A program made the translations under genes and the position numbers. From Candidatus Gastranaerophilales bacterium (GTDB lineage Bacteria > Cyanobacteriota > Vampirovibrionia > Gastranaerophilales > Gastranaerophilaceae), in assembly GCA_944325545.1 (NCBI GenBank), contig CALVAM010000011.1, positions 2,023 through 66,022 on the forward strand: 64,000 nucleotides of DNA, given 5' to 3'. The notes below the pieces were generated by a model. It worked only from the letters and a program-made list of their open reading frames with translations. It was not told the DNA's origin and ran no database searches. Positions 1,759-57,717 of the stretch are shown in pieces (positions within the stretch are counted from its first letter, which is position 1; the number at the start of each line of letters is the position of its first letter).

Positions 1759-2157
1759 TTAAGCTTTAACTTTAAACGCAAATTTTTTAAATAACACATA
1801 AGTGAAAATCGCAGCAGCTAAAGTTGCAAAGAATTGTGCTATATATACATTTGAATGAATAAATTTAACAAAAATTTCTAATAAACAAGCATTTATAAAA
1901 TAGCTAAAAATCCAAGTTGTACAGCATTTTAGATATTCTTTTTTCCAATCTCCTTTACTTCTAAAAACAAGGAATTTTTGAGTAGTAAAAGAAACAACAG
2001 AGGATATTAACCAAGCAAGAGCCAAGGCCATTTGATAAACTCTTTCACCAAAAATAATACAGATTAGTGAATAAATTAAATACGAAACACCGGCATTAAA
2101 TCCACCCACAAATAGAAATCTTATTTTATCTGATAAACCAAACCAAAACTTTTTCAA
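1759..2157 (-). CDS. GtrA family membrane protein (putative lipid-linked sugar translocase)
   Basis: IRFLFVGGFN, SFTTQKFLVF, four TM segments, C-terminal KKFAF. Confidence 0.88.
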   Translation of the reverse strand: MKKFWFGLSDKIRFLFVGGFNAGVSYLIYSLICIIFGERVYQMALALAWLISSVVSFTTQKFLVFRSKGDWKKEYLKCCTTWIFSYFINACLLEIFVKFIHSNVYIAQFFATLAAAIFTYVLFKKFAFKVKA

Positions 2158-2227
2158 AAAATCCTCCGACTATTAAATTAATGTCGGCAAAAAGTTTTAA
2201 AAAAACTTTTTGCCGCTATATTAATCC

Positions 2228-4489
2228 TTAAAACTTATATTCAGGAATCACAAATTGTTCATTATTTGCATCTTTTTCTACAAATTTCAAATAATAATCC
2301 AAAGCTTTTTCCTTAGAATTTTGATAAAACTCTTCTGAAATAAGTTCTCTATGTAATTCTGTTCTTTCGCCTGAATAATTACCTAAAACTCTTGAGAATT
2401 TTTCAATCATTTCAAGATTTTCACCACCTGAATAAGCTTTTGTTTTAGCATCTGTTCCGGATGGTCTTATTTCAACATATTTGTCTTTGAATTGTAAATA
2501 AGTTCCATCACCAACAAATTTTACAGAAACAAGATTATCGAAATTTAATTCTGCAAATGCATTATTAAGAACTTTTTTAACTGCTTCAACATCTGCAATG
2601 CCTTCTCTTATTGCAATTGCTAAAGATAAATAGAACATATCATTTTTAGTTCTTAATTTTTCACCTTCTATTTTTGCTAGTTTTAATTTTTCAATATCAG
2701 GTTCTGATTCGTTGTAATAAGAAATATCTTCTCTTACATCAAATTTTGCAATGATATTATTTTCTTCAAAAATTTCAATTAAGTATTCAGAAAGAGTTTT
2801 ATTATCTTCTTCCAATTTAGCAGCTAGAGCAGACGCTACAATAATAGCTTCCGTAGCACTTTTTTCTCTCATAGCAATTGCTTTTCTGCCAGCTAAAGAT
2901 TCAATTAAATCTTCAGAACCCATAATCATACCACCGGATTCTTCGCCTCCGAAAATTAATCTTGGTTGAACGCCCAAATTAATTGAATTTCCGAATACAT
3001 CATCTACAACAACTTCATCTTGAGGATTATTTTTAAGCTGCAATTCTACTTTTTTCATAATATTTGCAATTTCTTTAAATCCTACAGGGACATTTACAAC
3101 TTTAATTCCGTGAGCCTTTGCCCATTCATCCCAAGATAAAGCTGATGCTGTTGTTTTAATCATAAATCTAGGATGATTTTTGAATTTACCGCTTGCTTTT
3201 AATTGTTTTACACGATAATTCATTAACATCAAAAATGCTTGATTTGCACTGTAAACTGTTAATATTCTATCTTCATCCAATTGAATATATGAAATACCGT
3301 ATTCATCCAAATTTGGAACATTTCCACTTGCTTCAATTTGACAAACAGTAAGTCTATCGTGATCTGGGTCTGTAATTAATACAACAGTTCCTATAGGATA
3401 ATCAGCTAAAACTTTTTCATAGTGTAAAGATTCAATCACTGGGAAAAATCTTTCGCCATTAGGTTTTTTAGCAAGAACTGTTGCATCTACAGAATAATCA
3501 TAGAAAACTTTATTTCCTTTTGGATCAGTATCATATTTCCCGATACCGTGGAAGAATGGATCTTCTTCTGTATTATTCCATACAAATTTATCTTGAATAC
3601 CTAACTTTTCTAAAACTCTGCTCAAAGTTCTATAAGCACATCCGCCTACACTCTCAATAAATAATTTAGACTTCATTTTCTTAATGCTATCAAGATTTTG
3701 AGCAACGCCTGATTTTAAATATTCAACATATAAATCTACACCGTCATTCAATTTTGACATTATTTCTTCATCAATTAATTTATCATCACTTGCTGCTATT
3801 TTAATTTCATATTTACCTTCTTTTTCAGTAATATCAAAAATTTCTTGTATTTTATTTACAAATTCTAAAGATTCTTCAGGTAAATATTGGCTTCCTTGAG
3901 AATTTAAATCTTTAGTAGCAGTTTTTACAGAAATACCGTGACTTGAAGTAATATATTCTCCGCCAAGTAAATCAAGTTTGAACGCTAAAAATGAAGCTAA
4001 CCATATTGGGATGGTTTTTCTTTCCTTTGGAGTTAAAGTCTTAATACCTTGAGCAGCTTGTATTCTTGCAATAGCATCCAAATACAAATCTGAATTATAT
4101 CTTACTTCACTTCCCACAAGTTTTATAATTTCTTTTCCTGCATATTTTTCTCTTGCGACAAGTGCTTTAGCTAAAGTTGCTAAAACAATTCCAACTAAAT
4201 TAATAGGAAATCTTGTATCTTGAGGATATAAAATGTTTTGTGGACCTCTAATACCTGCTGTTGATACTTTTGCTTCTTTTGAATAATTTGCAAACCAATC
4301 TAGTAAATTTAATCCTTCTGGATTTTCTGAACTATGAGGATATAGGTGTTCTCTTTTTAATGTAAAAGTAAACTCACCTTTATTATCAAAATCCATTAGA
4401 TTCATATTTTTAATATAATCAGGAGTTTTATCAAAAACATTTTTGAACAACTCTTTTTCTAATTCACTTTTTGCTTCTTTTTTAATCAT
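2228..4489 (-). CDS. Alpha-D-phosphohexomutase (phosphoglucomutase/phosphomannomutase family), long form
   Basis: STAGIRG, phosphoserine loop ITSSHG, metal loop DPDHDR, GGEESGG, IRPSGT; ATG at 4489 has an AGGGAG RBS, preferred over 4570. Confidence 0.88.
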   Translation of the reverse strand: MIKKEAKSELEKELFKNVFDKTPDYIKNMNLMDFDNKGEFTFTLKREHLYPHSSENPEGLNLLDWFANYSKEAKVSTAGIRGPQNILYPQDTRFPINLVGIVLATLAKALVAREKYAGKEIIKLVGSEVRYNSDLYLDAIARIQAAQGIKTLTPKERKTIPIWLASFLAFKLDLLGGEYITSSHGISVKTATKDLNSQGSQYLPEESLEFVNKIQEIFDITEKEGKYEIKIAASDDKLIDEEIMSKLNDGVDLYVEYLKSGVAQNLDSIKKMKSKLFIESVGGCAYRTLSRVLEKLGIQDKFVWNNTEEDPFFHGIGKYDTDPKGNKVFYDYSVDATVLAKKPNGERFFPVIESLHYEKVLADYPIGTVVLITDPDHDRLTVCQIEASGNVPNLDEYGISYIQLDEDRILTVYSANQAFLMLMNYRVKQLKASGKFKNHPRFMIKTTASALSWDEWAKAHGIKVVNVPVGFKEIANIMKKVELQLKNNPQDEVVVDDVFGNSINLGVQPRLIFGGEESGGMIMGSEDLIESLAGRKAIAMREKSATEAIIVASALAAKLEEDNKTLSEYLIEIFEENNIIAKFDVREDISYYNESEPDIEKLKLAKIEGEKLRTKNDMFYLSLAIAIREGIADVEAVKKVLNNAFAELNFDNLVSVKFVGDGTYLQFKDKYVEIRPSGTDAKTKAYSGGENLEMIEKFSRVLGNYSGERTELHRELISEEFYQNSKEKALDYYLKFVEKDANNEQFVIPEYKF

Positions 4490-4614
4490 AAAAAGTTTCT
4501 CCCTATCTAAAATATATCTTAAATTATACCATACATATTTTATTTCTTTATATAAAAAATGGTTAGACAAAAATATCTAACCATTTTTGAGTTATTAATT
4601 TCTATATTATTTTT

Positions 4615-7011
4615 TTAAATAAACAGGTTGGAATTAGCAGAAGAGCTTTCTTGAATATATTTAGCAACTCCTCCGATTTCAACTCCATCAATTAATTCTT
4701 CTTCTTTAATCCCCATAACATCCATTGACATATTGCAGGCAATAAATTTTACTCCATTATCTTGAGCCTGTTTAATAAGTTCATTTAGTGTAGAAACATT
4801 TTTATTTTTCATAACCCATTTCATCATAATGGAGCCCATTCCACCCATATTCATTTTAGAAAGAGTTAATTTATCAGCACCTTTAGGCATCATCATCCCA
4901 AACATTTTATCAATAAGACCTTTTTTAACATTTTTATCTGGACGTCTTAAAATATTTAATCCCCAGAAAGTAAAGAATAAAGTAACATCTTTTCCTGCTG
5001 CCTTGGCACCATTTGCGATAATCATTGCAGCAAGTGCTTTATCCAAATCATTTGAAAAAACTACTATCGTTTGAGAATTTCCGACATTTAAAACTTTGTT
5101 TTCATTAGTATCTTTGTTGCCTTTTTGAATAACAGCCCTAATAATTTTATTTTCTACTCTTAAACCTAAAAGTTTATTCCCTGTAGAATTACACCATGCA
5201 TCAATATCGGATTTAAATCCTCTGTCTGTTGATGTAACTTCTAAAATATCACCGTCATTAACTTCAATAATTTTAGATGCAACCTTCATAATCGGTCCGG
5301 GACATTGAAGTCCGCAAGCATCTATTTTGATTCTTTCACCACTATTTATAGAAGAAATATTATTAGCACTTACTAAAGATTGAACTTTAGATTTTTTCTC
5401 AATATTACCTACTTTATCTTTTTTCAATTCTTTATACAAAGAAATTCCGCCCATCAAAGAATACACATTATTAAATCCGTTTTGGATTAAAATTCTTGAA
5501 GCTACATAACTGTTATATCCTGTATTACAGAATAAAATAACTTTTTCATTCTTAGGAATTTCATTTAATCTTGTTCTTATCTCTTCAACAGGAATATTTT
5601 TAGCACTTCCAATCGTTGCTATTTCAAATATTTCACGCGGTCTTACATCAATTAGATAAGCACCTTCTAAATCTTCATAATACGCAGGTTTAATAAAGCC
5701 TCTTAAAATATTATCAGCATTCATTCCCAAAATATTAACCCCGTCCTTAGCAGAAGAATAAGGTGGAGCATAACATAATTCACTATCTAAAAGTTCTTGA
5801 ACAGTTCCGTTATTTCTCATAACAGAAGCTATAACATCAATTCTTTTTTCAACTCCGTCAACTCCAACCGCTTGAGCTCCAAAGATTTTTCCTGAATTAT
5901 CAAACAAAAGTTTATAACAAATTTGAGTTGAATTAGGATAATATCCGGCATGATCTCTTGAAAATACAAAAGTTTTCCAATAATCAACACCTCTTTGTAT
6001 AAGTTGTTTTTCATTATTCCCCACTGATGCTACAGTTAAATCAAAAACTTTTAAAACAGAAGTACCTTGTGATTTTTTATAAGTTGATTCAATACCGCAA
6101 ATATTATCTGCAATAATTCTGCCTTGTCTATTCGCAGGACCTGCAAGAGGAATTAAAGAATAATTATCAGATACAAAATCTTTAACTTCCACTCCATCGC
6201 CGCCTGCATAAATATCAGGATTAGAAGTCTGCATTCTATCATTTACAACAATACCTCTATTAACTTCTAAACCAGCATTTTTAGCGATTTCAATTTCAGG
6301 TCTTACTCCGATTGCCATTATTACGATATCAAATTCTATTTCTTTAGACGATGATAGAATAATTTTATTACCATCAAATTTTTGAACTCCATCACCTAAA
6401 ATTAATTCAACACCTCTATCACGCATTTCATTTTGTGCAAAAGCTGCAATTTCCCAATCTACAGGTGCTAAAATCTGTTTTTGCATCTCTACCAAAGATG
6501 TTTCCAAACCCATTTCAACAAGGTTTTCTGCCATCTCTACTCCTATAAAACCACCACCGATTACTACAGCTTTTTTACAATTGTTCTCTTTTATATATTC
6601 TTTTATTTTATCTGCATCATATAAAGTACGAAGCGTAAAAATTTTATCCTTTGGTAAACCTTCAAATTCAGGAACAAAAGGGCTTGCTCCTTGAGCTAAT
6701 ACTAATTTATCATATGAAATCTCTTCATTGTTTTCTAATTTAACTGTTTTTAGTTCAGGATTTATACTAACAACTTTAGAAAATAATCTAACTTCTATAT
6801 TTAATAAATTATGAAATTTTTGAGGAGAAGATACCAAAATCTTTTCTCTTTCATCAATTACTCCTGAAACATAATAAGGTAAACCGCAATTAGCTATAGA
6901 AGTTTCACCTGTTTTTTCTAAAACTATTATTTCAGCATTCTCATCTAATCTTCTTATTCTTGCAGCAGCACTCGCTCCGCAAGCTCCTCCGCCTATTATT
7001 ACTACTCTCAT
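4615..7011 (-). CDS. CoA-disulfide/persulfide reductase fused to rhodanese, TusA/SirA and DsrE/F domains
   Basis: GGGACG FAD motif, ANCGLPY redox Cys, GGGFIGVE NAD(P)H motif, YAPPY; rhodanese FCNTG; TusA IDACGLQCPGP; DsrE TLFFTFWGL and IACNMSMDVMG. Confidence 0.92.
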   Translation of the reverse strand: MRVVIIGGGACGASAAARIRRLDENAEIIVLEKTGETSIANCGLPYYVSGVIDEREKILVSSPQKFHNLLNIEVRLFSKVVSINPELKTVKLENNEEISYDKLVLAQGASPFVPEFEGLPKDKIFTLRTLYDADKIKEYIKENNCKKAVVIGGGFIGVEMAENLVEMGLETSLVEMQKQILAPVDWEIAAFAQNEMRDRGVELILGDGVQKFDGNKIILSSSKEIEFDIVIMAIGVRPEIEIAKNAGLEVNRGIVVNDRMQTSNPDIYAGGDGVEVKDFVSDNYSLIPLAGPANRQGRIIADNICGIESTYKKSQGTSVLKVFDLTVASVGNNEKQLIQRGVDYWKTFVFSRDHAGYYPNSTQICYKLLFDNSGKIFGAQAVGVDGVEKRIDVIASVMRNNGTVQELLDSELCYAPPYSSAKDGVNILGMNADNILRGFIKPAYYEDLEGAYLIDVRPREIFEIATIGSAKNIPVEEIRTRLNEIPKNEKVILFCNTGYNSYVASRILIQNGFNNVYSLMGGISLYKELKKDKVGNIEKKSKVQSLVSANNISSINSGERIKIDACGLQCPGPIMKVASKIIEVNDGDILEVTSTDRGFKSDIDAWCNSTGNKLLGLRVENKIIRAVIQKGNKDTNENKVLNVGNSQTIVVFSNDLDKALAAMIIANGAKAAGKDVTLFFTFWGLNILRRPDKNVKKGLIDKMFGMMMPKGADKLTLSKMNMGGMGSIMMKWVMKNKNVSTLNELIKQAQDNGVKFIACNMSMDVMGIKEEELIDGVEIGGVAKYIQESSSANSNLFI

Positions 7012-49287: not shown

Positions 49288-50622
49288 TTAAATATCCTTA
49301 TCATCAAAAAGTTTGTTGAAAAAGTTTTTAATTTTTTGTCTTAAACTTCTTTTGGGTTTTATTTCTTCCGTTTGTTTAGGTTGAACATTTTGAGCGTTGT
49401 ATTTGTTATTAAATTTTTTTCCCCATTTACTGGTTTTTCTTTTTATTTTTTGATTTCTTTTTGAGTCTTCCAGAGCTTTCTTTTTTTCTGCAAAAATTCT
49501 ATCTTTTTTAGAAACTTTATTAGTTTTTATTTTTATTGGAACTTCTTCTTTTTTTGTAAAATCAAACCAATTAAAATTAGATTTTTGGTTTAAATCTATT
49601 TTAGCTACATTATCTAAATTCAAAGTATGGTTTTCACTTGTATTTAGAAACGCTTTTTTATCTATATTTAAGTTTTTTCTTGTCTTTAGATTAAAAAATA
49701 AAGCTACTATGTTTTGTTTTATTTTATGAACAAATTTGTTAGTTTTTTTCTCACTCGTATCTTGAATATTAATATCTTTAATTTTAGTTTTTTTAGAATT
49801 ATAAGTATAATCTTTTAAATAACTTTCAGGAGCTTTATCTAAATTCAAAGTATTGTTTTCACTTGTATTTAAAAACGCTTTTTTATCAACATTTAAACTT
49901 TTTCTTGTTCTTAAGTTGAATAAAAGAATTTCAATATTAAGCTTTAACTTATCTAAAAAGTTTAATTTTTCATTAGTTTCTATAGCAGCTTCTTTTATTG
50001 GCGAATCTTTTTTAGTCGTTTCTTTTTTTGTAATTTTTTCTGTTTTTTTAGAAATTTGTTCTATATATCCTCTTTCTTCTTTAGAATTAAAAGGAATTAA
50101 TTTATAATTAAAAGTTTGAATATTGTCTTGTTTGTTTGTAGAAAATATTATATTATTAGTTGTTTTTGTATTGTTTTTTGGAACTGTTTCATTTGAAGTT
50201 GTTTTGAAATTTTCGTTTTTGTAAAAACCTTGAGTTTCTGTTTTTCTTTTATTAGTTTTTTTTAAATTTTCAGCAGCTTCTTTTGTTTTATCTTGGAGTT
50301 TTTTATTAATTTCTTCAAGTTTAGTTTTTAATTCTTGTTGATTTTTTTCTGAAAGATTTAGTTTTTCAAGAGCTTTTTTTAAACTTTCATTTAATCCTTT
50401 ATTTTTGTGAATAGCAACTCCGGCAACAGTTGCAGAACCTAAAAAACCTAAAGTAAGTAATATATCTTTAGTGTTAAAACTTGATTTTTTTGTTGGAATT
50501 GTTTTTATAAAATCATCATTTATAAAAGATTCATTTTGACTAAGAGTAGGATTTTCAATCTTTTCTTCTGACTTAAAGTTTATAAATTTATTAGGAATAT
50601 TAAAATTATTAGAAATTTTCAT
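49288..50622 (-). CDS. Lys/Asn-rich hypothetical protein with one TM segment and an internal repeat
   Basis: LLTLGFLGSATVAGVAI; about 80-nt near-duplicates at 49610 and 49835 (225-nt spacing). Confidence 0.7.
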   Translation of the reverse strand: MKISNNFNIPNKFINFKSEEKIENPTLSQNESFINDDFIKTIPTKKSSFNTKDILLTLGFLGSATVAGVAIHKNKGLNESLKKALEKLNLSEKNQQELKTKLEEINKKLQDKTKEAAENLKKTNKRKTETQGFYKNENFKTTSNETVPKNNTKTTNNIIFSTNKQDNIQTFNYKLIPFNSKEERGYIEQISKKTEKITKKETTKKDSPIKEAAIETNEKLNFLDKLKLNIEILLFNLRTRKSLNVDKKAFLNTSENNTLNLDKAPESYLKDYTYNSKKTKIKDINIQDTSEKKTNKFVHKIKQNIVALFFNLKTRKNLNIDKKAFLNTSENHTLNLDNVAKIDLNQKSNFNWFDFTKKEEVPIKIKTNKVSKKDRIFAEKKKALEDSKRNQKIKRKTSKWGKKFNNKYNAQNVQPKQTEEIKPKRSLRQKIKNFFNKLFDDKDI

Positions 50623-50712: not shown

Positions 50713-52605
50713 TTATTCATTTAAAAGCTTATCTGCTAAAGGTGATTCGACTTTTCCATTTAGAGTTTTGGATACTTTTTTAATGTTTTCTGACATTGTT
50801 TGCATTTCAGGAGTCCATACAAAATTATCCATCACATATTTTTCCCCTTTAGAAAAATCTCCTTTCATTTGTACTTGGATAATTTCTTCAAGCATTTTCT
50901 TTGCAGTTGGTATCATTTTTTCTATATTAACGTTTAAGATACCGTCTTTAGAAATTTCCATTGCACCTTCTTTTATAAAATAGTAATTTTGCATAACTGA
51001 ACGAACTCTATGAGCTTGGCTTAGAGTTGGTTTAGAAGTCATCATATTATCTGCTGCATATGTTACTATTATTTGATTTCTTTGCTCAGGTGTATACATT
51101 CCTGCCTCTGTTAATACATCAAGCATTGCAAGAGAAACCATATCAGCTTTATTTTCTTCAATAATTGATTTATATTTACCCAAACCTTCTGTACCTGATT
51201 TTGGTCCAAGAGAATGTCCGTTTTCATGTCCTACTGTGAACCAGTGATCTGCTTCGTCGTTATAATATTTATGTAGTTCAGGGTTTAGAGTTGCATCTAA
51301 ACGTTTCTTCATTTTTTCTCTAGCATCATCCGATGTAATTAATCTTATTTGTCTATGATAAACGTTTCTTCTTCCGCCATCTAATTCTATTATTGATAAT
51401 TTATCATCATTAGGTAAATTTTCTGCAAGAGTTATCCCTGCTCTAAATTCTCCAACATCACCGTTTACTGCAACTAAATCTACATCAACCATTGTTTGTT
51501 TAGATTCTTTATCCGGTGAAATGTTTTGGATATAACTATCTTTGAAAGGCATATTTTGTGCCATTAGCGGTAAATAATTTTTAACGCCTAAAATAGCTTC
51601 TGTACCTTTTTTATTAACTATTCCGACACGACCGCCTAAAAAGTCTTTAGCAACAGGAGTGATTCCATTTTCATCAAGTAATTTTTTTAATTCAGGATTT
51701 TCAACTACAGTTTCTGTTAATTCATCTGAATAATTTTCTCTTGTTATTGTAAATTCTAACGGAGTATCTTGTAGGGTTGCCCATTTTTTATCCGCATAAG
51801 CATCTAACATTGGGTCTGCTGTTCTTAAAGCTTTTGCCTGCAGTTTTAAGAATTCGTTAAAATCTTCATTTGTTGATGTTTCTGCGGCCTTTTCAAGTTC
51901 TGATGACATATAAGCAAAATCATCTTTAAATTTATCTACATAATCTGTAGCTACAAGTTCATTTCCAACTCTTTCTACAACAGAGCGTTGATTTAGAATT
52001 TTAGCAACTTCATCTACTTTACCTTCTTTTAACATTTTAATTAATATATTGTGAAATTCTTCTTTTTCTAAGTCTTGAGGATAAACACCTTTTCCGGGTC
52101 TTTCTTTGACACCTTTAGCCAGTTCTATCATATTGCTTTCTCTATCAAGTGAACAAACTCCTTTTTGAGCATCAAAAAGAATCTTTGTTAATTTTGCTTG
52201 CTCGTTACCTTTTGCAATTTCTTTTTCCAAATATTCTTGAAAAGGTAAGTTATTAGGGTTATCAAGCTGCATATTAACTTTATCCAAAACCTTTGCAGCC
52301 TTTACTAAATGTTTTAAAGCTTCTTTATCTCCATCTGCTAATTCTAAATATTCAGGTGCGTCAACTGCTAGCATTTTTTTTGTTGTTAGATAGTCTTTGT
52401 GAGTTCTTTTTTCTAACTCTTCCATAGAAAGATTTAATTCGTAATCTTTTTTATTAATATTTACATTATTAATCATACTCATTCTATTAAGCTCCTCTAC
52501 TAATTTTTGTGAATCATCTTTTTTTATATTTTTATTATCATCTTTGGAAATATAATTTTTCCCAAAAAGATTAATATTATTTTTATTTAAACGATTTATT
52601 TCCAT
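50713..52605 (-). CDS. Peptidase M49-like (dipeptidyl peptidase III-like) zinc metallopeptidase with a low-complexity N-terminus
   Basis: GHENGHSLG (HExxH), downstream IEENKAD third-ligand motif, AENLPND, GKGVYP. Confidence 0.85.
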   Translation of the reverse strand: MEINRLNKNNINLFGKNYISKDDNKNIKKDDSQKLVEELNRMSMINNVNINKKDYELNLSMEELEKRTHKDYLTTKKMLAVDAPEYLELADGDKEALKHLVKAAKVLDKVNMQLDNPNNLPFQEYLEKEIAKGNEQAKLTKILFDAQKGVCSLDRESNMIELAKGVKERPGKGVYPQDLEKEEFHNILIKMLKEGKVDEVAKILNQRSVVERVGNELVATDYVDKFKDDFAYMSSELEKAAETSTNEDFNEFLKLQAKALRTADPMLDAYADKKWATLQDTPLEFTITRENYSDELTETVVENPELKKLLDENGITPVAKDFLGGRVGIVNKKGTEAILGVKNYLPLMAQNMPFKDSYIQNISPDKESKQTMVDVDLVAVNGDVGEFRAGITLAENLPNDDKLSIIELDGGRRNVYHRQIRLITSDDAREKMKKRLDATLNPELHKYYNDEADHWFTVGHENGHSLGPKSGTEGLGKYKSIIEENKADMVSLAMLDVLTEAGMYTPEQRNQIIVTYAADNMMTSKPTLSQAHRVRSVMQNYYFIKEGAMEISKDGILNVNIEKMIPTAKKMLEEIIQVQMKGDFSKGEKYVMDNFVWTPEMQTMSENIKKVSKTLNGKVESPLADKLLNE

Positions 52606-53613: not shown

Positions 53614-53937
53614 TTATTTTTTAAATTTTTTCTGTTCTTCATTATATTTGTCTACAGATTTTCCAACAGCTCCGCCAAGAGAACCAAATATCGCACCATA
53701 AGCTAAATATGCTGCAGGAGCTGCTATGCCGCCACTTAAAAAAGTAATCGCAGCTAAAGCTCCAACTCCGACTACAGCACCAATCCCAGCACCTTTAACA
53801 GCCCCTTTGCCTTTAAAAGAAACTGTATCTGTTGCGAGAGTTTCATTAGAGTTTGTTGGAATTTCGTTTCTAAATTTCTTGTTAATTTTTCTAGGCGAAC
53901 AGGTAAGCCCATAACTTTGGATAGCATTGATTTTCAT
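53614..53937 (-). CDS. Small glycine-zipper membrane hypothetical protein
   Basis: GAVKGAGIGAVVGVGA...GAIFGSLGGAVG; ATG at 53937 has a GAGGGT RBS, and the promoter position excludes the 53964 start. Confidence 0.78.
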   Translation of the reverse strand: MKINAIQSYGLTCSPRKINKKFRNEIPTNSNETLATDTVSFKGKGAVKGAGIGAVVGVGALAAITFLSGGIAAPAAYLAYGAIFGSLGGAVGKSVDKYNEEQKKFKK

Positions 53938-53970
53938 AATATAAACCCTCATGGTTAAACACACTCGGCA

Positions 53971-53999
53971 AGTATACTCTAAAGTATGTAAAATGTCAA
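53971..53999 (-). promoter_or_regulatory. Near-consensus sigma-70 promoter
   Basis: Minus strand TTGACA-N17-TATACT. Confidence 0.8.
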
Positions 54000-54087
54000 T
54001 ACTTTTGTAGTAAAAATTTACATTATTAATTAAATTGCCATATTGGGGAATATATTATTTTGTGATTAATTTTATTATGTATTTGCT

Positions 54088-55665
54088 ATGACAAATAATT
54101 TTAATGAAGATTACCAATATGATAGTTGTACCGCTAACGGAAGATGTTCTGTTAATCCAAGAATATCTTCGCTTCAAGAGGTTTTGATTTTATATTTAAA
54201 GCTTCTTGCTCACTATGCTCTGAAATTATATGAAAATAATAAAAAAGAGGATATTGCTAAAAATATTATTCTTAATATTATATCTGTAATGGTTTTAAAT
54301 TCTGATTTTTCAGAAAAAGATTTTGAAAAAATAATTTTGAGATTAAATAATGAATTACCTAGAATTAAAGAAGAATATGCTTCTTTATGTGAACAAAATG
54401 ATTTGGTGCCGGATTACTTAAAATCGGTTTTAAAATTTGATAATAAAGCAGATATAATTAAATCTATTCAACTTGGGGAAAAAGAATTATTAAAAAAAAT
54501 AGAATCAATTTCTCAAGAAATTAGAAATTTATATACAATCTTGTTAGTTTTAGCCAAAAGTATTTGCATAAATCTTTTGGATTTAGAAAGTTTTTCTGTA
54601 AATAATGAAGAAGCTTATATTTATATCTTGAGATTGTTAGACAGTTTAAATGTCAATAAATATAAATTGGAAGAAATAAAAACATTGATAAAAGATGCTG
54701 TAAGATTTGATAACACTTTAATGGAAGAACTTAGAAATGTTCAAGAAAAAAGGTATGGAACGCAAAGAGAAACTATTGTATCTTTTTCAACAACTCCTTC
54801 AAAAGCTTTATTGGTTGTAGGTTCTAATATAAAAGAATTAGAGGATGTATTGGACGCTTTAAAGGAAACTGAAATTGATGTTTATACACACGATGAAATG
54901 ATGCTCGCTCATACTTTTCCTAAGTTCAGTGAATATAAGCATTTGAAAGGACAATACGGACAAGGAATGGATAATTGTTATTTAGATTTTGCAACTTTCC
55001 CGGGACCAATTTTATTAACAAAGCATTCTTTGTATAATGTAGAAAATTTGTATAGAGGTAGGCTTTATACGACTGATATTGCGTATTCAAAAGGTGTAAT
55101 CTCTATTGAGAATAAAGATTTTTCTCCAATAATTAATTCTGCTCTGGAAGCAAAAGGTTTTAAAACAGGGAAAAAAATCGAGTCAGTTGACGTCGGATAT
55201 AACTTTGATAAAACTTTTGAAAAGGTAAAAAATAAGTTTTTGAAAGGAAATTATTCAAGAATTTTTCTTATAGGCTTAAATGCTTATACTTTAGAGCAAA
55301 AATCGTATTTTGAAAATTTAATTAAGAAAACTCCTAAAGATGTTTTAATTGTTTCACTTTCGTATTGTGAGGATACTGATAATATTATTTGTATAAATGC
55401 TTGTTTTGATACTTTTGCGATAAGTAAATTTGGCGAAAAAATAATTAAAGAATTTGATATTCCGATTACGATCTTTTTCCCAAGGTGTGAAAGACATAGT
55501 ATTTCTCAGATGTTGTATTTATCAGAATTTGATAATGTTAAAATTTATGTTGGAAGATGTGCTCCAATATTATTAAATCCAACATTGATAGAAACTTTGG
55601 GTAAGTTTTTTAATATAAAAAGTCTTTCCAGTGTAAAAAAAGATTTAGAAAGTATTTTTGAATAA
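54088..55665 (+). CDS. Hybrid-cluster protein (Hcp/prismane)-like protein lacking several cluster ligands
   Basis: CT..G.C, IDVYTH.EM, HLKGQYG, FPGPILLT, RLYTT recognisable; N-terminal CxxC, the GH His, TxNC and GCD Cys are absent. Confidence 0.75.
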   Translation: MTNNFNEDYQYDSCTANGRCSVNPRISSLQEVLILYLKLLAHYALKLYENNKKEDIAKNIILNIISVMVLNSDFSEKDFEKIILRLNNELPRIKEEYASLCEQNDLVPDYLKSVLKFDNKADIIKSIQLGEKELLKKIESISQEIRNLYTILLVLAKSICINLLDLESFSVNNEEAYIYILRLLDSLNVNKYKLEEIKTLIKDAVRFDNTLMEELRNVQEKRYGTQRETIVSFSTTPSKALLVVGSNIKELEDVLDALKETEIDVYTHDEMMLAHTFPKFSEYKHLKGQYGQGMDNCYLDFATFPGPILLTKHSLYNVENLYRGRLYTTDIAYSKGVISIENKDFSPIINSALEAKGFKTGKKIESVDVGYNFDKTFEKVKNKFLKGNYSRIFLIGLNAYTLEQKSYFENLIKKTPKDVLIVSLSYCEDTDNIICINACFDTFAISKFGEKIIKEFDIPITIFFPRCERHSISQMLYLSEFDNVKIYVGRCAPILLNPTLIETLGKFFNIKSLSSVKKDLESIFE

Positions 55666-55757: not shown

Positions 55758-56906
55758 ATGCAAAACAAACCTGTTGTTATAGTTCTTGATAAAAATGAGA
55801 ATTCAAGAAAAGTTTTGATGTCATTTTTACAAGATTTTGATTTGATAGAAAATATAGAAGTGTATGAAGATTATGATAGAGGTTTTGAAAATATAAAAAA
55901 ACAAAATGGTGAAGCTATTGTAATTGTTGATATAACAGATATTGATTCAGATGAATTTATTGAAAAGGTACGTTTACATGCTTCTAAATTGATAATAACT
56001 TCGACTGATTATTCAACAAATACGATTGTAAAAGCATTAAGAATGGGTGCGAAAGAATTTTTACCTAAGCCTATTATAAAAAATGATTTATTGAGAACAA
56101 TTTCTTCTTTAATTAATAATGATTATTCAGAGGTTTATTCTCAATCTAAGATAATTACTGTATATTCTAATAAGGGCGGCATAGGAAAGACAACACTTGC
56201 AATAAATCTAGCTAAAGAATTAGAAAAAGTGACTAAATGTAAGGTTGCATTAATTGATTTAAATCTTCAGTTGGGAGATGTTTCTACTTTTTTAAATTTA
56301 AATCCTACATTTGATGTTAGTTATGTAATCAAAAATTTTATAAATAAAGATGAAGAGATTTTTTTGAAAGCTTTTGAGCGATATAAGGATAGTTTATTAT
56401 ATATTTTATCTGATCCTACATATATAGAACAGGCTGAAAGTATTTCTCCGCAGGATATTACAAAATTGTTTAATGAATTAAAAAAAGTTTTTTCATATAT
56501 AGTAGTTGATATGTCTTCTAATATTGATGAAAATTCTTTAAAAATTCTTGATTTATCAGATTTAGTTTTATTTACAACTATCGTAAATGTTCCGGCAATT
56601 AGAAATGCACAGAGATGTTTAACTTTATTTAATTCAAGAAGATATCCTAAAGATAAGGTAAAAATTATTGTTAATAGATATATAGAAAGTGATGATATAA
56701 AAATAGAGGATATAGAAAATACGCTAGGAGAAAAAATTTATTGGAGAATTCCTAACAATTACTTCACAATTATGGAAGCTATCAATAAAGGTATTTGTGT
56801 TTCAGAAATTAATTCAAATTCTAATATTGCAAATAATTTCCGCGATTTAGCCGCAAAAATTTCTGATGATATAATAGAAAAGACCGTAATGCAATATAGA
56901 GTTTAA
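55758..56906 (+). CDS. CpaE/TadZ-like protein (receiver-like domain plus MinD/ParA ATPase)
   Basis: KALRMGAKEFLPKP, SNKGGIGKTT, IDLNLQLGDV, IIVNRY, RIPNNY. Confidence 0.88.
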   Translation: MQNKPVVIVLDKNENSRKVLMSFLQDFDLIENIEVYEDYDRGFENIKKQNGEAIVIVDITDIDSDEFIEKVRLHASKLIITSTDYSTNTIVKALRMGAKEFLPKPIIKNDLLRTISSLINNDYSEVYSQSKIITVYSNKGGIGKTTLAINLAKELEKVTKCKVALIDLNLQLGDVSTFLNLNPTFDVSYVIKNFINKDEEIFLKAFERYKDSLLYILSDPTYIEQAESISPQDITKLFNELKKVFSYIVVDMSSNIDENSLKILDLSDLVLFTTIVNVPAIRNAQRCLTLFNSRRYPKDKVKIIVNRYIESDDIKIEDIENTLGEKIYWRIPNNYFTIMEAINKGICVSEINSNSNIANNFRDLAAKISDDIIEKTVMQYRV

Positions 56907-56919
56907 AAGAGGATAATAG

Positions 56920-57717
56920 ATGTTAACTTATATAAAAGAAAGTTTTAAATTAACTAATAAATTTATTATATTGGCAACTCCATTAATATTGTTTTCTTTG
57001 TTGTCCAGTTTATATATTATATTTTCGATGAATGGGAATTTGTTAGGTTTAATTTTTGCTTTAATATTGTTTTTGATGATGGTTGGGGCTTTTTTATCAG
57101 GTTGGTTTTTTATGATAAAGCAAGCTATTGTATCATCTGAAGAATATGAAGATCCAAACTCTTTAATAAAAGAATTTCCTGCAGGCGTAGGGGAGTATTT
57201 TTTAAATTCTTTAGGAATGATAATAAATGTTTTTATTGTTGTTGTATTCTTTTTGGGCGTATCTTATTTTATAGGGATGAAATTTATTGGGCAAATTGGA
57301 ATTTCTGCAGTAGAATTTTCTAAGGCAGTTACCTCACCTGAAACTTTGAGAACTTTCTTGCTATCGTTGACTGATGAACAATTGTTTAGGTTAAATGCTT
57401 GGAATTTATTACTGTTGGTTAGTATGGTAGTTACATATTTTGTGATTTTTTTGTACCCGCCAACGATGTTTTTTAAGGAAAAAAATCCGTTTAAAGCTTT
57501 GTTTGGGACTTTTAAGGATTTATTTAGTAGAAATATTCTGAAAAATATTTTGTTATATTTGATATTGTTTGTTGCTTATTTCTTTATTTCGATAGTTACA
57601 ACTATTTTGGGTGGTAATATTTTTGCTCATTTTATATTAACATTGATAAATTTTTACTACATGATTTTTGCAGCTGTTTTAATATTTTATTATTATCATA
57701 AGAATTATATGAATTAA
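56920..57717 (+). CDS. Multi-pass membrane hypothetical protein
   Basis: About six hydrophobic segments; GAGG RBS; probably co-transcribed with the CpaE-like gene. Confidence 0.8.
   Translation: MLTYIKESFKLTNKFIILATPLILFSLLSSLYIIFSMNGNLLGLIFALILFLMMVGAFLSGWFFMIKQAIVSSEEYEDPNSLIKEFPAGVGEYFLNSLGMIINVFIVVVFFLGVSYFIGMKFIGQIGISAVEFSKAVTSPETLRTFLLSLTDEQLFRLNAWNLLLLVSMVVTYFVIFLYPPTMFFKEKNPFKALFGTFKDLFSRNILKNILLYLILFVAYFFISIVTTILGGNIFAHFILTLINFYYMIFAAVLIFYYYHKNYMN

Follow-up and report, generated by a model that had tools for sequence, protein, structure and literature searches.

What becomes of a cluster-binding enzyme when the residues that hold its clusters are replaced and the protein is nevertheless kept? 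The question is raised by a gene at positions 54088–55665 on the forward strand of a 64,000-nucleotide window (G+C around 28%) from contig CALVAM010000011.1 of Candidatus Gastranaerophilales bacterium (assembly GCA_944325545.1; host genome 1.82 Mb, 99.6% complete). Its product is a 525-residue relative of Hcp, a widespread and still poorly understood enzyme. We refer to it as HcpL, a provisional name coined here for a Gastranaerophilaceae clade of proteins that has no curated family. HcpL retains the Hcp fold, has lost ligands of both Hcp clusters and has gained cysteines that canonical Hcp lacks. With a probability of about one half, we read it as a thiol-redox protein built on the Hcp scaffold, in which a dithiol/disulfide relay would replace the iron–sulfur (Fe–S) relay of Hcp.

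HcpL is a full-length Hcp homologue

The coding sequence runs from an ATG at 54088 to a stop codon that ends at 55665. Its product matched the Pfam prismane/carbon monoxide dehydrogenase (CODH) domain PF03063 with 112.8 bits against a gathering cut-off of 27, and phmmer aligned it with Hcp chains of the Protein Data Bank (PDB) at E values of 1.9e-35 to 8.9e-30, collinearly across residues 11–523. The Hcps used for comparison were the class I enzymes of Desulfovibrio vulgaris (1E1D, 1E2U and 1W9M), D. desulfuricans (1GN9) and M. thermolithotrophicus (8CNR), and the class II enzyme of E. coli (7DE4). Identity to solved Hcps was 20–23% in Foldseek and 22% to E. coli Hcp in MAFFT, and a search of the ESM Atlas returned members of the Prismane family, mainly from Melainabacteria.

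An AlphaFold model of HcpL, computed from an input alignment of 115 sequences, reached a mean predicted local distance difference test (pLDDT) score of 88.7 and a predicted template modelling (pTM) score of 0.89, and comprises the complete three-domain Hcp fold. Its best PDB matches in Foldseek were class I and class II Hcps, with template modelling (TM) scores of 0.76–0.78; the match to D. vulgaris Hcp (1E1D) had a TM score of 0.78 and an E value of 6e-28. The PDB sequence search gave no match to CODH chains, and the Ni,Fe-CO dehydrogenase fold matched with a TM score of only around 0.49 and a root-mean-square deviation of around 14 Å, the His and Cys positions of its C-cluster being substituted in HcpL. 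The model is weakest at residues 1–20 (pLDDT below 50 for residues 1–13), with confidence of 71–74 in the loops 291–300, 311–320 and 491–500; these parts are the former cofactor-binding elements. HcpL is thus a true full-length class I Hcp homologue that has kept the full fold, and in this respect a first-pass annotation of the same DNA, which had described an intact, full-length Hcp/prismane homologue, was correct.

Two NCBIfam equivalog models for Hcp nevertheless excluded the protein: for TIGR01703 it reached 228.6 bits where 360.8 are required, and for NF003658 221.7 bits where 367 are required. We did not file HcpL as an Hcp, since it departs from that family in three defining features: its equivalog scores are too low, its cubane motif is incomplete and its hybrid-cluster ligands are mostly replaced.

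Most cluster ligands have been replaced

The residues that bind the clusters are described as conserved in all three classes of Hcp (PMC10502027), and His244, Glu268, Cys459 and Glu494 are ligands of the hybrid cluster (PMC9311411). We located their equivalents in HcpL by HMMER alignment to D. vulgaris Hcp (1E2U) and by MAFFT alignment with E. coli Hcp, and verified the codons; canonical ligands are numbered as in D. vulgaris, and bracketed coordinates refer to the forward strand of the window. Conservation is given for two groups, a close genus-level clade (121 proteins with an identity of at least 50%) and the wider family.

At the N terminus the CxxC motif of Cys3 and Cys6 is replaced by DYQY (residues 8–11; 54109–54120), in which Y11 is Tyr in 119 of the 121 close-clade members. 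The other half of the cubane loop survives as C14-x3-G18-x-C20 (54127–54147), equivalent to Cys15 and Cys21, with the glycine and the spacing kept. Within the hybrid-cluster site, S246-N247 of a VVGSN segment (54823–54828) takes the place of His244-Asp of the GHD motif, and H313-S314 in TKHS (55024–55029) that of Asn-Cys312, so that both ligands are lost; H313 itself occurs throughout the close clade. The Cys406 persulfide loop, G-C-D in Hcp, reads G396-L397-N398 within IGLN (55273–55281) and contains no cysteine, L397 or N398 being the Cys406 equivalent according to whether HMMER or MAFFT, which differ here by one column, is followed. The Cys434 ligand position is occupied by the tyrosine of Y426-C427 (55363–55368).

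Three of the seven hybrid-cluster ligands are kept in this copy. E270, in the H268-D269-E270 of a THDE motif (54889–54897), corresponds to Glu268 and is Glu or Asp in the close clade and variable in the wider family. C439 (55402–55404) corresponds to Cys459 and is Cys in 98% of the genus-level clade versus 5% of the wider family, and E468, in C467-E468 (55486–55491), corresponds to Glu494, at which most relatives have Asp. Non-ligating residues have thus replaced two of the four cubane ligands and four of the seven hybrid-cluster ligands. Across the HcpL clade as a whole, conservation is lacking in all seven hybrid-ligand columns: where Hcp has His244, for instance, its members have S, N, T, D or E; where it has Cys312, they have S, E, A or Y.

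HMMER, MAFFT and the Foldseek structure match agree on the substituted positions, on which ground we rejected an alignment artefact, and the motifs that flank the ligands (GxN, YTHxE, FPGPI-LT and G-x-x-P) are conserved and anchor the alignment. Judged from these residues, HcpL cannot coordinate the usual cubane and hybrid cluster, as the first-pass annotation had argued. The four replacements that it had listed (DYQY for CxxC, GSN for the His, TKHS for TxNC and IGLN for GGCD) are borne out by both alignments and by the codons, and the Glu of the HxE motif and the late Glu that it took to be retained are E270 and E468. It had further counted two later cysteines as retained. Of these, only C439 is a conserved ligand equivalent. 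C427, which adjoins the Cys434 position, is poorly conserved, being Cys in 68% of close-clade members and in 3% of the wider family. The annotation's estimate that about half of the ligands are missing understates the loss across the family.

Given the loss of the hybrid [4Fe-2S-2O] cluster site, HcpL probably reduces neither nitric oxide (NO) nor hydroxylamine, even if automatic annotation may assign it that role; in the source databases, genes of the HcpL family are called either 'hydroxylamine reductase' or 'hypothetical protein'.

HcpL forms a widespread clade under purifying selection

Of 300 Gastranaerophilaceae genomes sampled from GTDB, 289 had an HcpL homologue. Of the 60 genera, 57 were represented, and within the host's own genus all 12 genomes had the protein, at an identity of 45–63%. 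A word-indexed search returned 481 relatives, the best 120 of which are 50–94% identical, and an exhaustive HMMER search yielded 128 clusters at 50% identity with E ≤ 1e-30. In a class-wide sample, each of 48 Gastranaerophilaceae genomes contained a match, one of them (G198) to a canonical-type Hcp only, and the class-level hits that we checked outside the family were canonical Hcps with complete ligand sets. A maximum-likelihood tree placed the HcpL proteins, as a 32-row clade holding the query, apart from canonical Hcp with a Shimodaira–Hasegawa-like approximate likelihood-ratio support of 100. No paper or curated model describing this lineage was found in a search of the literature and of family models. 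Together with the scores below both NCBIfam cut-offs, these results agree with the annotation's suggestion of an undescribed Hcp subfamily: HcpL appears to be a distinct subfamily, seemingly undescribed.

Four proteins of other lineages (P0208, P0213, P0226 and P0235), which branch with canonical Hcp in the tree, carry partly substituted ligands, for example with His249 changed to K or N, or with Cys433/458 replaced; the erosion of Hcp ligands is therefore not limited to the Gastranaerophilaceae clade.

About half of the related genomes also hold a separate canonical Hcp of around 511 residues (loci L077–L079) with all 11 ligands (CCCC and HECCCCE). This paralogue scores 518 bits to 8CNR and is 24–26% identical to HcpL. 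Since about half of these genomes keep both proteins, HcpL is no simple stand-in for Hcp. A canonical Hcp was not found in the host genome, and each of the 12 sampled genomes of its genus gave one match only. HcpL is the only prismane-family gene in this genus, and metabolic reconstructions that assign Hcp-type detoxification of NO or hydroxylamine to gut Melainabacteria are therefore probably wrong.

The ratio of non-synonymous to synonymous substitution rates (dN/dS) was 0.062 and 0.075 against relatives at 93–94% identity and 0.18 at 72% identity, and resembles that of neighbouring genes. An intact open reading frame (ORF) was present in 290 of 301 genomes, the host genome included, and two stop-containing copies occurred among the approximately 150 matches listed. 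HcpL is therefore fast-evolving yet not decaying, as the dN/dS values indicate clear purifying selection. On the basis of the low dN/dS and the intact ORFs we rejected decay, a prospect that the first-pass annotation had itself raised for the orthologues. It is highly improbable that HcpL is an ordinary Hcp with artefactual ligand losses, or a decaying pseudogene: relatives do bear the label of a hydroxylamine reductase, and an identity as low as that to the solved Hcps could mislead an alignment, but three methods agree on the substitutions, both equivalog cut-offs were missed and the orthologues are intact and constrained.

New cysteines are fixed in place of the lost ligands

If the cluster ligands have gone, which residues has selection kept? 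C14 and C20, the remnant of the cubane loop, are each conserved as Cys in 98% of close-clade proteins and in 87–89% of the wider family. Two further cysteines are family-wide and new. C467, immediately before the Glu494 equivalent, is Cys in 100% of the close clade and 84% of the wider family; 16 of 20 canonical Hcps have F, Y or L at this position, one each has Q, N, G or a gap, and none has Cys. C491 (55558–55560), in a G-x-C-x-P motif, is Cys in 99% and 81%, respectively. The corresponding segment of the D. vulgaris and M. thermolithotrophicus enzymes reads G-P-T-L-P, and canonical Hcps have varied non-Cys residues at position 491, often Thr, Ser or Ala. In the secondary structure of the model, C467 and C491 lie in loops that follow two successive β-strands of domain 3. 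The residue before Glu494 presumably lies between the two clusters in D. vulgaris Hcp, an assumption of ours that a literature search did not confirm. A fifth widely conserved cysteine, C101 (54388–54390; 85% and 81% in the two groups), is lost independently of the others. The first-pass annotation had allowed for relocated ligands, an idea that the gain of C467 and C491, and of C297, C364, C439 and H313 in the genus-level clade (below), partly bears out; it had overlooked these residues.

All four of C14, C20, C467 and C491 are present in the HcpL of this window and jointly in 160 of 183 family proteins. They occur in every single-copy member derived from a genome (69 of 72 tabulated proteins); the three exceptions are tandem copies in one genome, G222. 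These copies lie on contig C23 (43500–50500; ORFs 1917–3542, 3539–5179 and 5225–6835 of that segment) beside an epimerase gene; two lack both C14 and C20 and the third lacks C20, and C467 and C491 are present in all three. Adjacent tandem matches to HcpL were also seen in genomes G220, G261, G227, G234 and G217, and copy number is variable.

Without correction for phylogeny, the odds ratio for joint loss was 128 for C14 and C20 and 80 for C467 and C491, with weak associations across the pairs. On phylogenetically independent contrasts, C14 and C20 changed together in five of eight cases and never in opposite directions (p 0.06); C467 and C491, in six contrasts, changed in the same direction about 3.4 times and in opposite directions about 1.0 time, which was not significant. 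C467 was unchanged in all eight independent contrasts that lose C14. Because C14/C20 and C467/C491 are lost independently of each other, the pattern points to two separable cysteine pairs, and one joint four-cysteine site is not favoured.

A proposed thiol relay or a remodelled cluster

In Hcp, an Fe–S relay leads from a surface cubane to the buried cluster. We propose that in HcpL this relay has been replaced by a dithiol/disulfide relay from C14/C20 to C467/C491. The first pair, the surviving half of the cubane loop, would sit at the former point of electron entry. The second, next to the former ligand Glu494, would act, within what was once the active-site cavity, on a putative substrate or partner.

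The same cysteines could instead hold an Fe–S cluster. HcpL might bind one through remodelled ligands and serve in electron transfer or redox sensing without a catalytic cluster, with either a [4Fe-4S] cluster on C14, C20 and two of C101, C467 and C491, or a cluster that bridges a dimer through C14 and C20 in the manner of the CODH D-cluster. Several observations suit this reading: the C-x3-G-x-C spacing and its glycine have been kept although the family diverges to 30% identity; N71, F74 and K157, which are invariant near the cubane in canonical Hcp, are kept in the close clade; exactly two cubane ligands have been lost and two new cysteines gained family-wide; and C467 takes the place of the aromatic residue beside Glu494, which presumably lies between the two clusters of Hcp. 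Clusters that bridge subunits with two cysteines from each are, moreover, established in the prismane/CODH superfamily (PMC9311411). Against these stand the separate loss of the two pairs, in that the combinations FSCC, ASCC and HGCC keep the second pair and CCAL, CCGF and CCYN the first, and the finding that the residues replacing lost cysteines are never alternative ligands. In addition, the model is of low confidence at residues 1–20, and the glutaredoxin encoded beside HcpL in several genera (below) keeps the active-site proline of the CPYC motif. Glutaredoxins of this CPYC type generally act as disulfide reductases and not as cluster carriers. We therefore treat a remodelled cluster as possible but rather doubtful.

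A glutaredoxin gene abuts HcpL in six other genera

The dithiol relay draws further support from gene order. Across six other genera, 28 of the 29 loci have a glutaredoxin-like gene of around 75–80 codons 1–24 bp upstream of HcpL on the same strand; at one locus it is annotated as overlapping HcpL. The active site is CPYC at 21 of these loci, while 2 others have CPFC and 5 have CPYS; the Pfam matches are GST_N_3 and Glutaredoxin. In these six genera the pair is flanked by a divergent gene for uridine diphosphate N-acetylglucosamine (UDP-GlcNAc) 2-epimerase and by a convergent rpsG–rpsL. The glutaredoxin gene abuts HcpL in 6 of the 13 genera sampled for context; four further genera show other contexts again.

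The host genome encodes a homologue of the CPYC-type glutaredoxin, standing alone at 84911–85132 of contig C5, a GCS2-type glutamate–cysteine ligase (C2, 1214–2014) and a glutathione-synthetase ATP-grasp domain (C16, 25379–25900). These three genes make a glutathione/glutaredoxin system plausible, and the host, a fermentative gut melainabacterium, probably makes and uses glutathione. A CPYC glutaredoxin together with glutathione could then reduce and recycle HcpL.

The same data bear on whether HcpL is redox-active at all. It might be a non-redox pseudoenzyme, in which the Hcp fold serves as a scaffold, binding partner or regulator and the cysteines are structural or have no role. Loss of the catalytic ligands, the fast evolution within the genus (45–63% identity), tandem copies in several genomes, and variable genomic context would all be in keeping with this. 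Four to five cysteines are, however, conserved against a background of around 30% identity, dN/dS is low, and a glutaredoxin gene adjoins HcpL in six genera; structural disulfides, for their part, would hardly be expected in a strict anaerobe's cytoplasm. A pseudoenzyme of this kind thus seems quite improbable to us.

Several points weigh against a thiol-redox role. The linkage to glutaredoxin is absent in the host's genus and in five other sampled genera, and in the genus-level clade no glutaredoxin gene was found beside HcpL at any of 44 loci (0 of 33 and 0 of 11). The pairwise co-loss of cysteines loses significance on phylogenetically independent contrasts. The predicted proximity of C467 to C491 and of C14 to C20 is read from strand topology alone. 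The exact C-x3-G-x-C spacing, together with a nearby S/T-N-x-x-F motif and a Lys that have been kept, also fits Fe–S binding, and six to eight conserved cysteines in this clade resemble a metal site as much as they do a set of dithiols.

The host's genus carries a further variant

The window adds to the family picture a genus-level variant that has neither the glutaredoxin linkage nor a canonical Hcp, keeps the Glu268 and Cys459 equivalents and has more invariant Cys and His residues. Near-invariant in this clade are C297 (54976–54978; Gln in canonical Hcp) and H313 in 121 of 121 proteins, C364 in 119, C439 in 118, C467 in 121 and C491 in 120; C427, C435 and C160 are partly conserved. C297, C364 and C439 are Cys in 27%, 6% and 5% of the wider family, respectively.

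The HcpL of the window has isoleucine (ATC) at position 364 (55177–55179). All three positions of this codon differ from the TGT of relatives at 93–94% identity, and the sequence stays in frame. Over its whole length, this copy differs from the clade consensus (positions at least 95% conserved) at 5 positions; the median in the clade is 1 and the maximum 11.

Under the dithiol-relay reading, the genus would represent a lineage in which glutaredoxin has become unlinked, canonical Hcp has gone and the pocket has gained C297, H313, C364 and C439; given these extra invariant residues, the chemistry may have been elaborated further. A more radical proposal, confined to this clade, is that the old pocket has been rebuilt as a new metal site with a new catalytic activity, refitted with C297, H313, C439, C467 and C491 (and mostly C364) to hold a cofactor new to the prismane family. 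The candidate ligands would be C297, C439, C467 and C491, perhaps with H313, H268, E270 or D/E468, and the cofactor could be, for example, a simple Fe–S cluster or a mononuclear metal. The near-invariance of C297, H313, C439, C467 and C491 across the 121 members speaks for such a site, as do the ancestral origin of C439 and E270 as kept ligands, the clade's loss of the glutaredoxin linkage and of canonical Hcp, and the location of these residues in, or one helix turn after, the post-strand loops of domains 2 and 3 where Hcp ligands sit. On the other side, C297, C364 and C439 occur only infrequently outside this clade, where C467 and C491 are still kept, so that any such metal site would be a late addition; the genome in hand has Ile for the near-invariant C364; and these very loops are where the model has its lowest confidence. 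We consider a rebuilt metal site unlikely. If it were real, the Hcp/CODH scaffold would have a third type of active site besides the Ni–Fe C-cluster and the Fe–S–O hybrid cluster, and the remaining HcpL family would represent a simpler dithiol stage.

Neighbouring genes are specific to the genus

The region immediately upstream of HcpL in the window (53965–54087, forward strand) is intergenic, contains no glutaredoxin gene and includes a weak promoter-like site, TTTACA-16-CATATT, at 54017–54044 on the forward strand. It separates HcpL from a divergent gene for a small Gly/Ala-rich protein of 116 residues (53614–53964, reverse strand; GTG start as listed) with a probable membrane segment. This small protein is 35–50% identical among most species of the genus and 70–100% identical in the three closest relatives. 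In this genus an HD-domain gene, 76–100% identical among clade loci, adjoins the small Gly-rich gene, divergently upstream of HcpL.

Downstream on the forward strand lie a gene for a 382-residue receiver-domain/MinD-like ATPase (55758–56906), assigned from Pfam and NCBIfam with a MinD score of 90 bits, far below the cut-off, and, 13 bp further on, one for a 265-residue multi-pass membrane protein that weakly resembles the BPSS1780 family (56920–57717). No terminator-like site was found between HcpL and these two genes. In this clade the ATPase gene follows HcpL in 21 of 33 loci and the membrane protein gene in 24 of 33.

In other genera the MinD-like ATPase gene lies hundreds of kilobases from HcpL, and the HD-domain gene is likewise distant; neither is therefore a family-wide partner. 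We rejected the idea that the ATPase is a maturation factor of the CooC kind or partners HcpL in signalling, since it lacks a CxC motif, has MinD as its best hit at a score far below the cut-off and is unlinked elsewhere; the HD-domain gene was rejected as a partner on account of its distance in other genera. The first-pass annotation had offered a sensor role for HcpL, an idea that finds no support here, the downstream response-regulator/MinD-like gene being a neighbour specific to the genus. Further upstream, two reverse-strand ORFs of 444 and 630 codons (49288–50622 and 50713–52605) had no Pfam match at E ≤ 0.001.

Implications

A lineage under strong selection that discards its catalytic cluster and fixes new cysteine pairs suggests that the Hcp scaffold can be reused for other chemistry. 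HcpL could also serve as a natural cluster-less control with which to separate the roles of Hcp that depend on its clusters from those that depend on its scaffold, such as the proposed S-nitrosylase role. As a near-universal gene, HcpL is a lineage marker for the Gastranaerophilaceae, common gut bacteria of animals and humans, in which its function is evidently important.

Comparison with known systems

HcpL shares with class I Hcp the PF03063 domain, the length, the three-domain fold, the C-x3-G-x-C half-loop, the YTH, FPGPI and GxYG-like motifs and D519. Unlike class I Hcp, it lacks Cys3 and Cys6, His244, Cys312, Cys406 and Cys434, and it has gained C467 and C491. Their partners also differ: the candidate partner of HcpL is a glutaredoxin, whereas that of Hcp is Hcr or a ferredoxin.

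Departures from the standard ligand set have been described elsewhere in the superfamily. CooS-V of C. hydrogenoformans (7B7Q) has the prismane fold with canonical cluster ligands substituted and an altered cofactor (PMC9311411), and structural groups of Ni-CODHs with incomplete active-site motifs exist (PMC6344411). HcpL resembles both in combining a prismane fold with substituted cluster ligands. In these deviants, however, the loss is confined to one ligand or a few, and Fe–S/O clusters are still bound, whereas HcpL has lost most of its ligands across the family; they are, in addition, CODH-type dimers with B and D clusters, a fold that HcpL matches with a TM score of around 0.49.

For the proposed chemistry, the closest parallels lie outside the superfamily. 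ArsC, 3′-phosphoadenosine-5′-phosphosulfate (PAPS) reductase and glutaredoxin-dependent peroxiredoxins are cysteine-based reductases that depend on glutaredoxin. HcpL is unrelated to them in sequence and fold, and the likeness would be one of mechanism only: a glutaredoxin-recycled thiol chemistry that, in HcpL, may have been installed on the scaffold of a former cluster enzyme.

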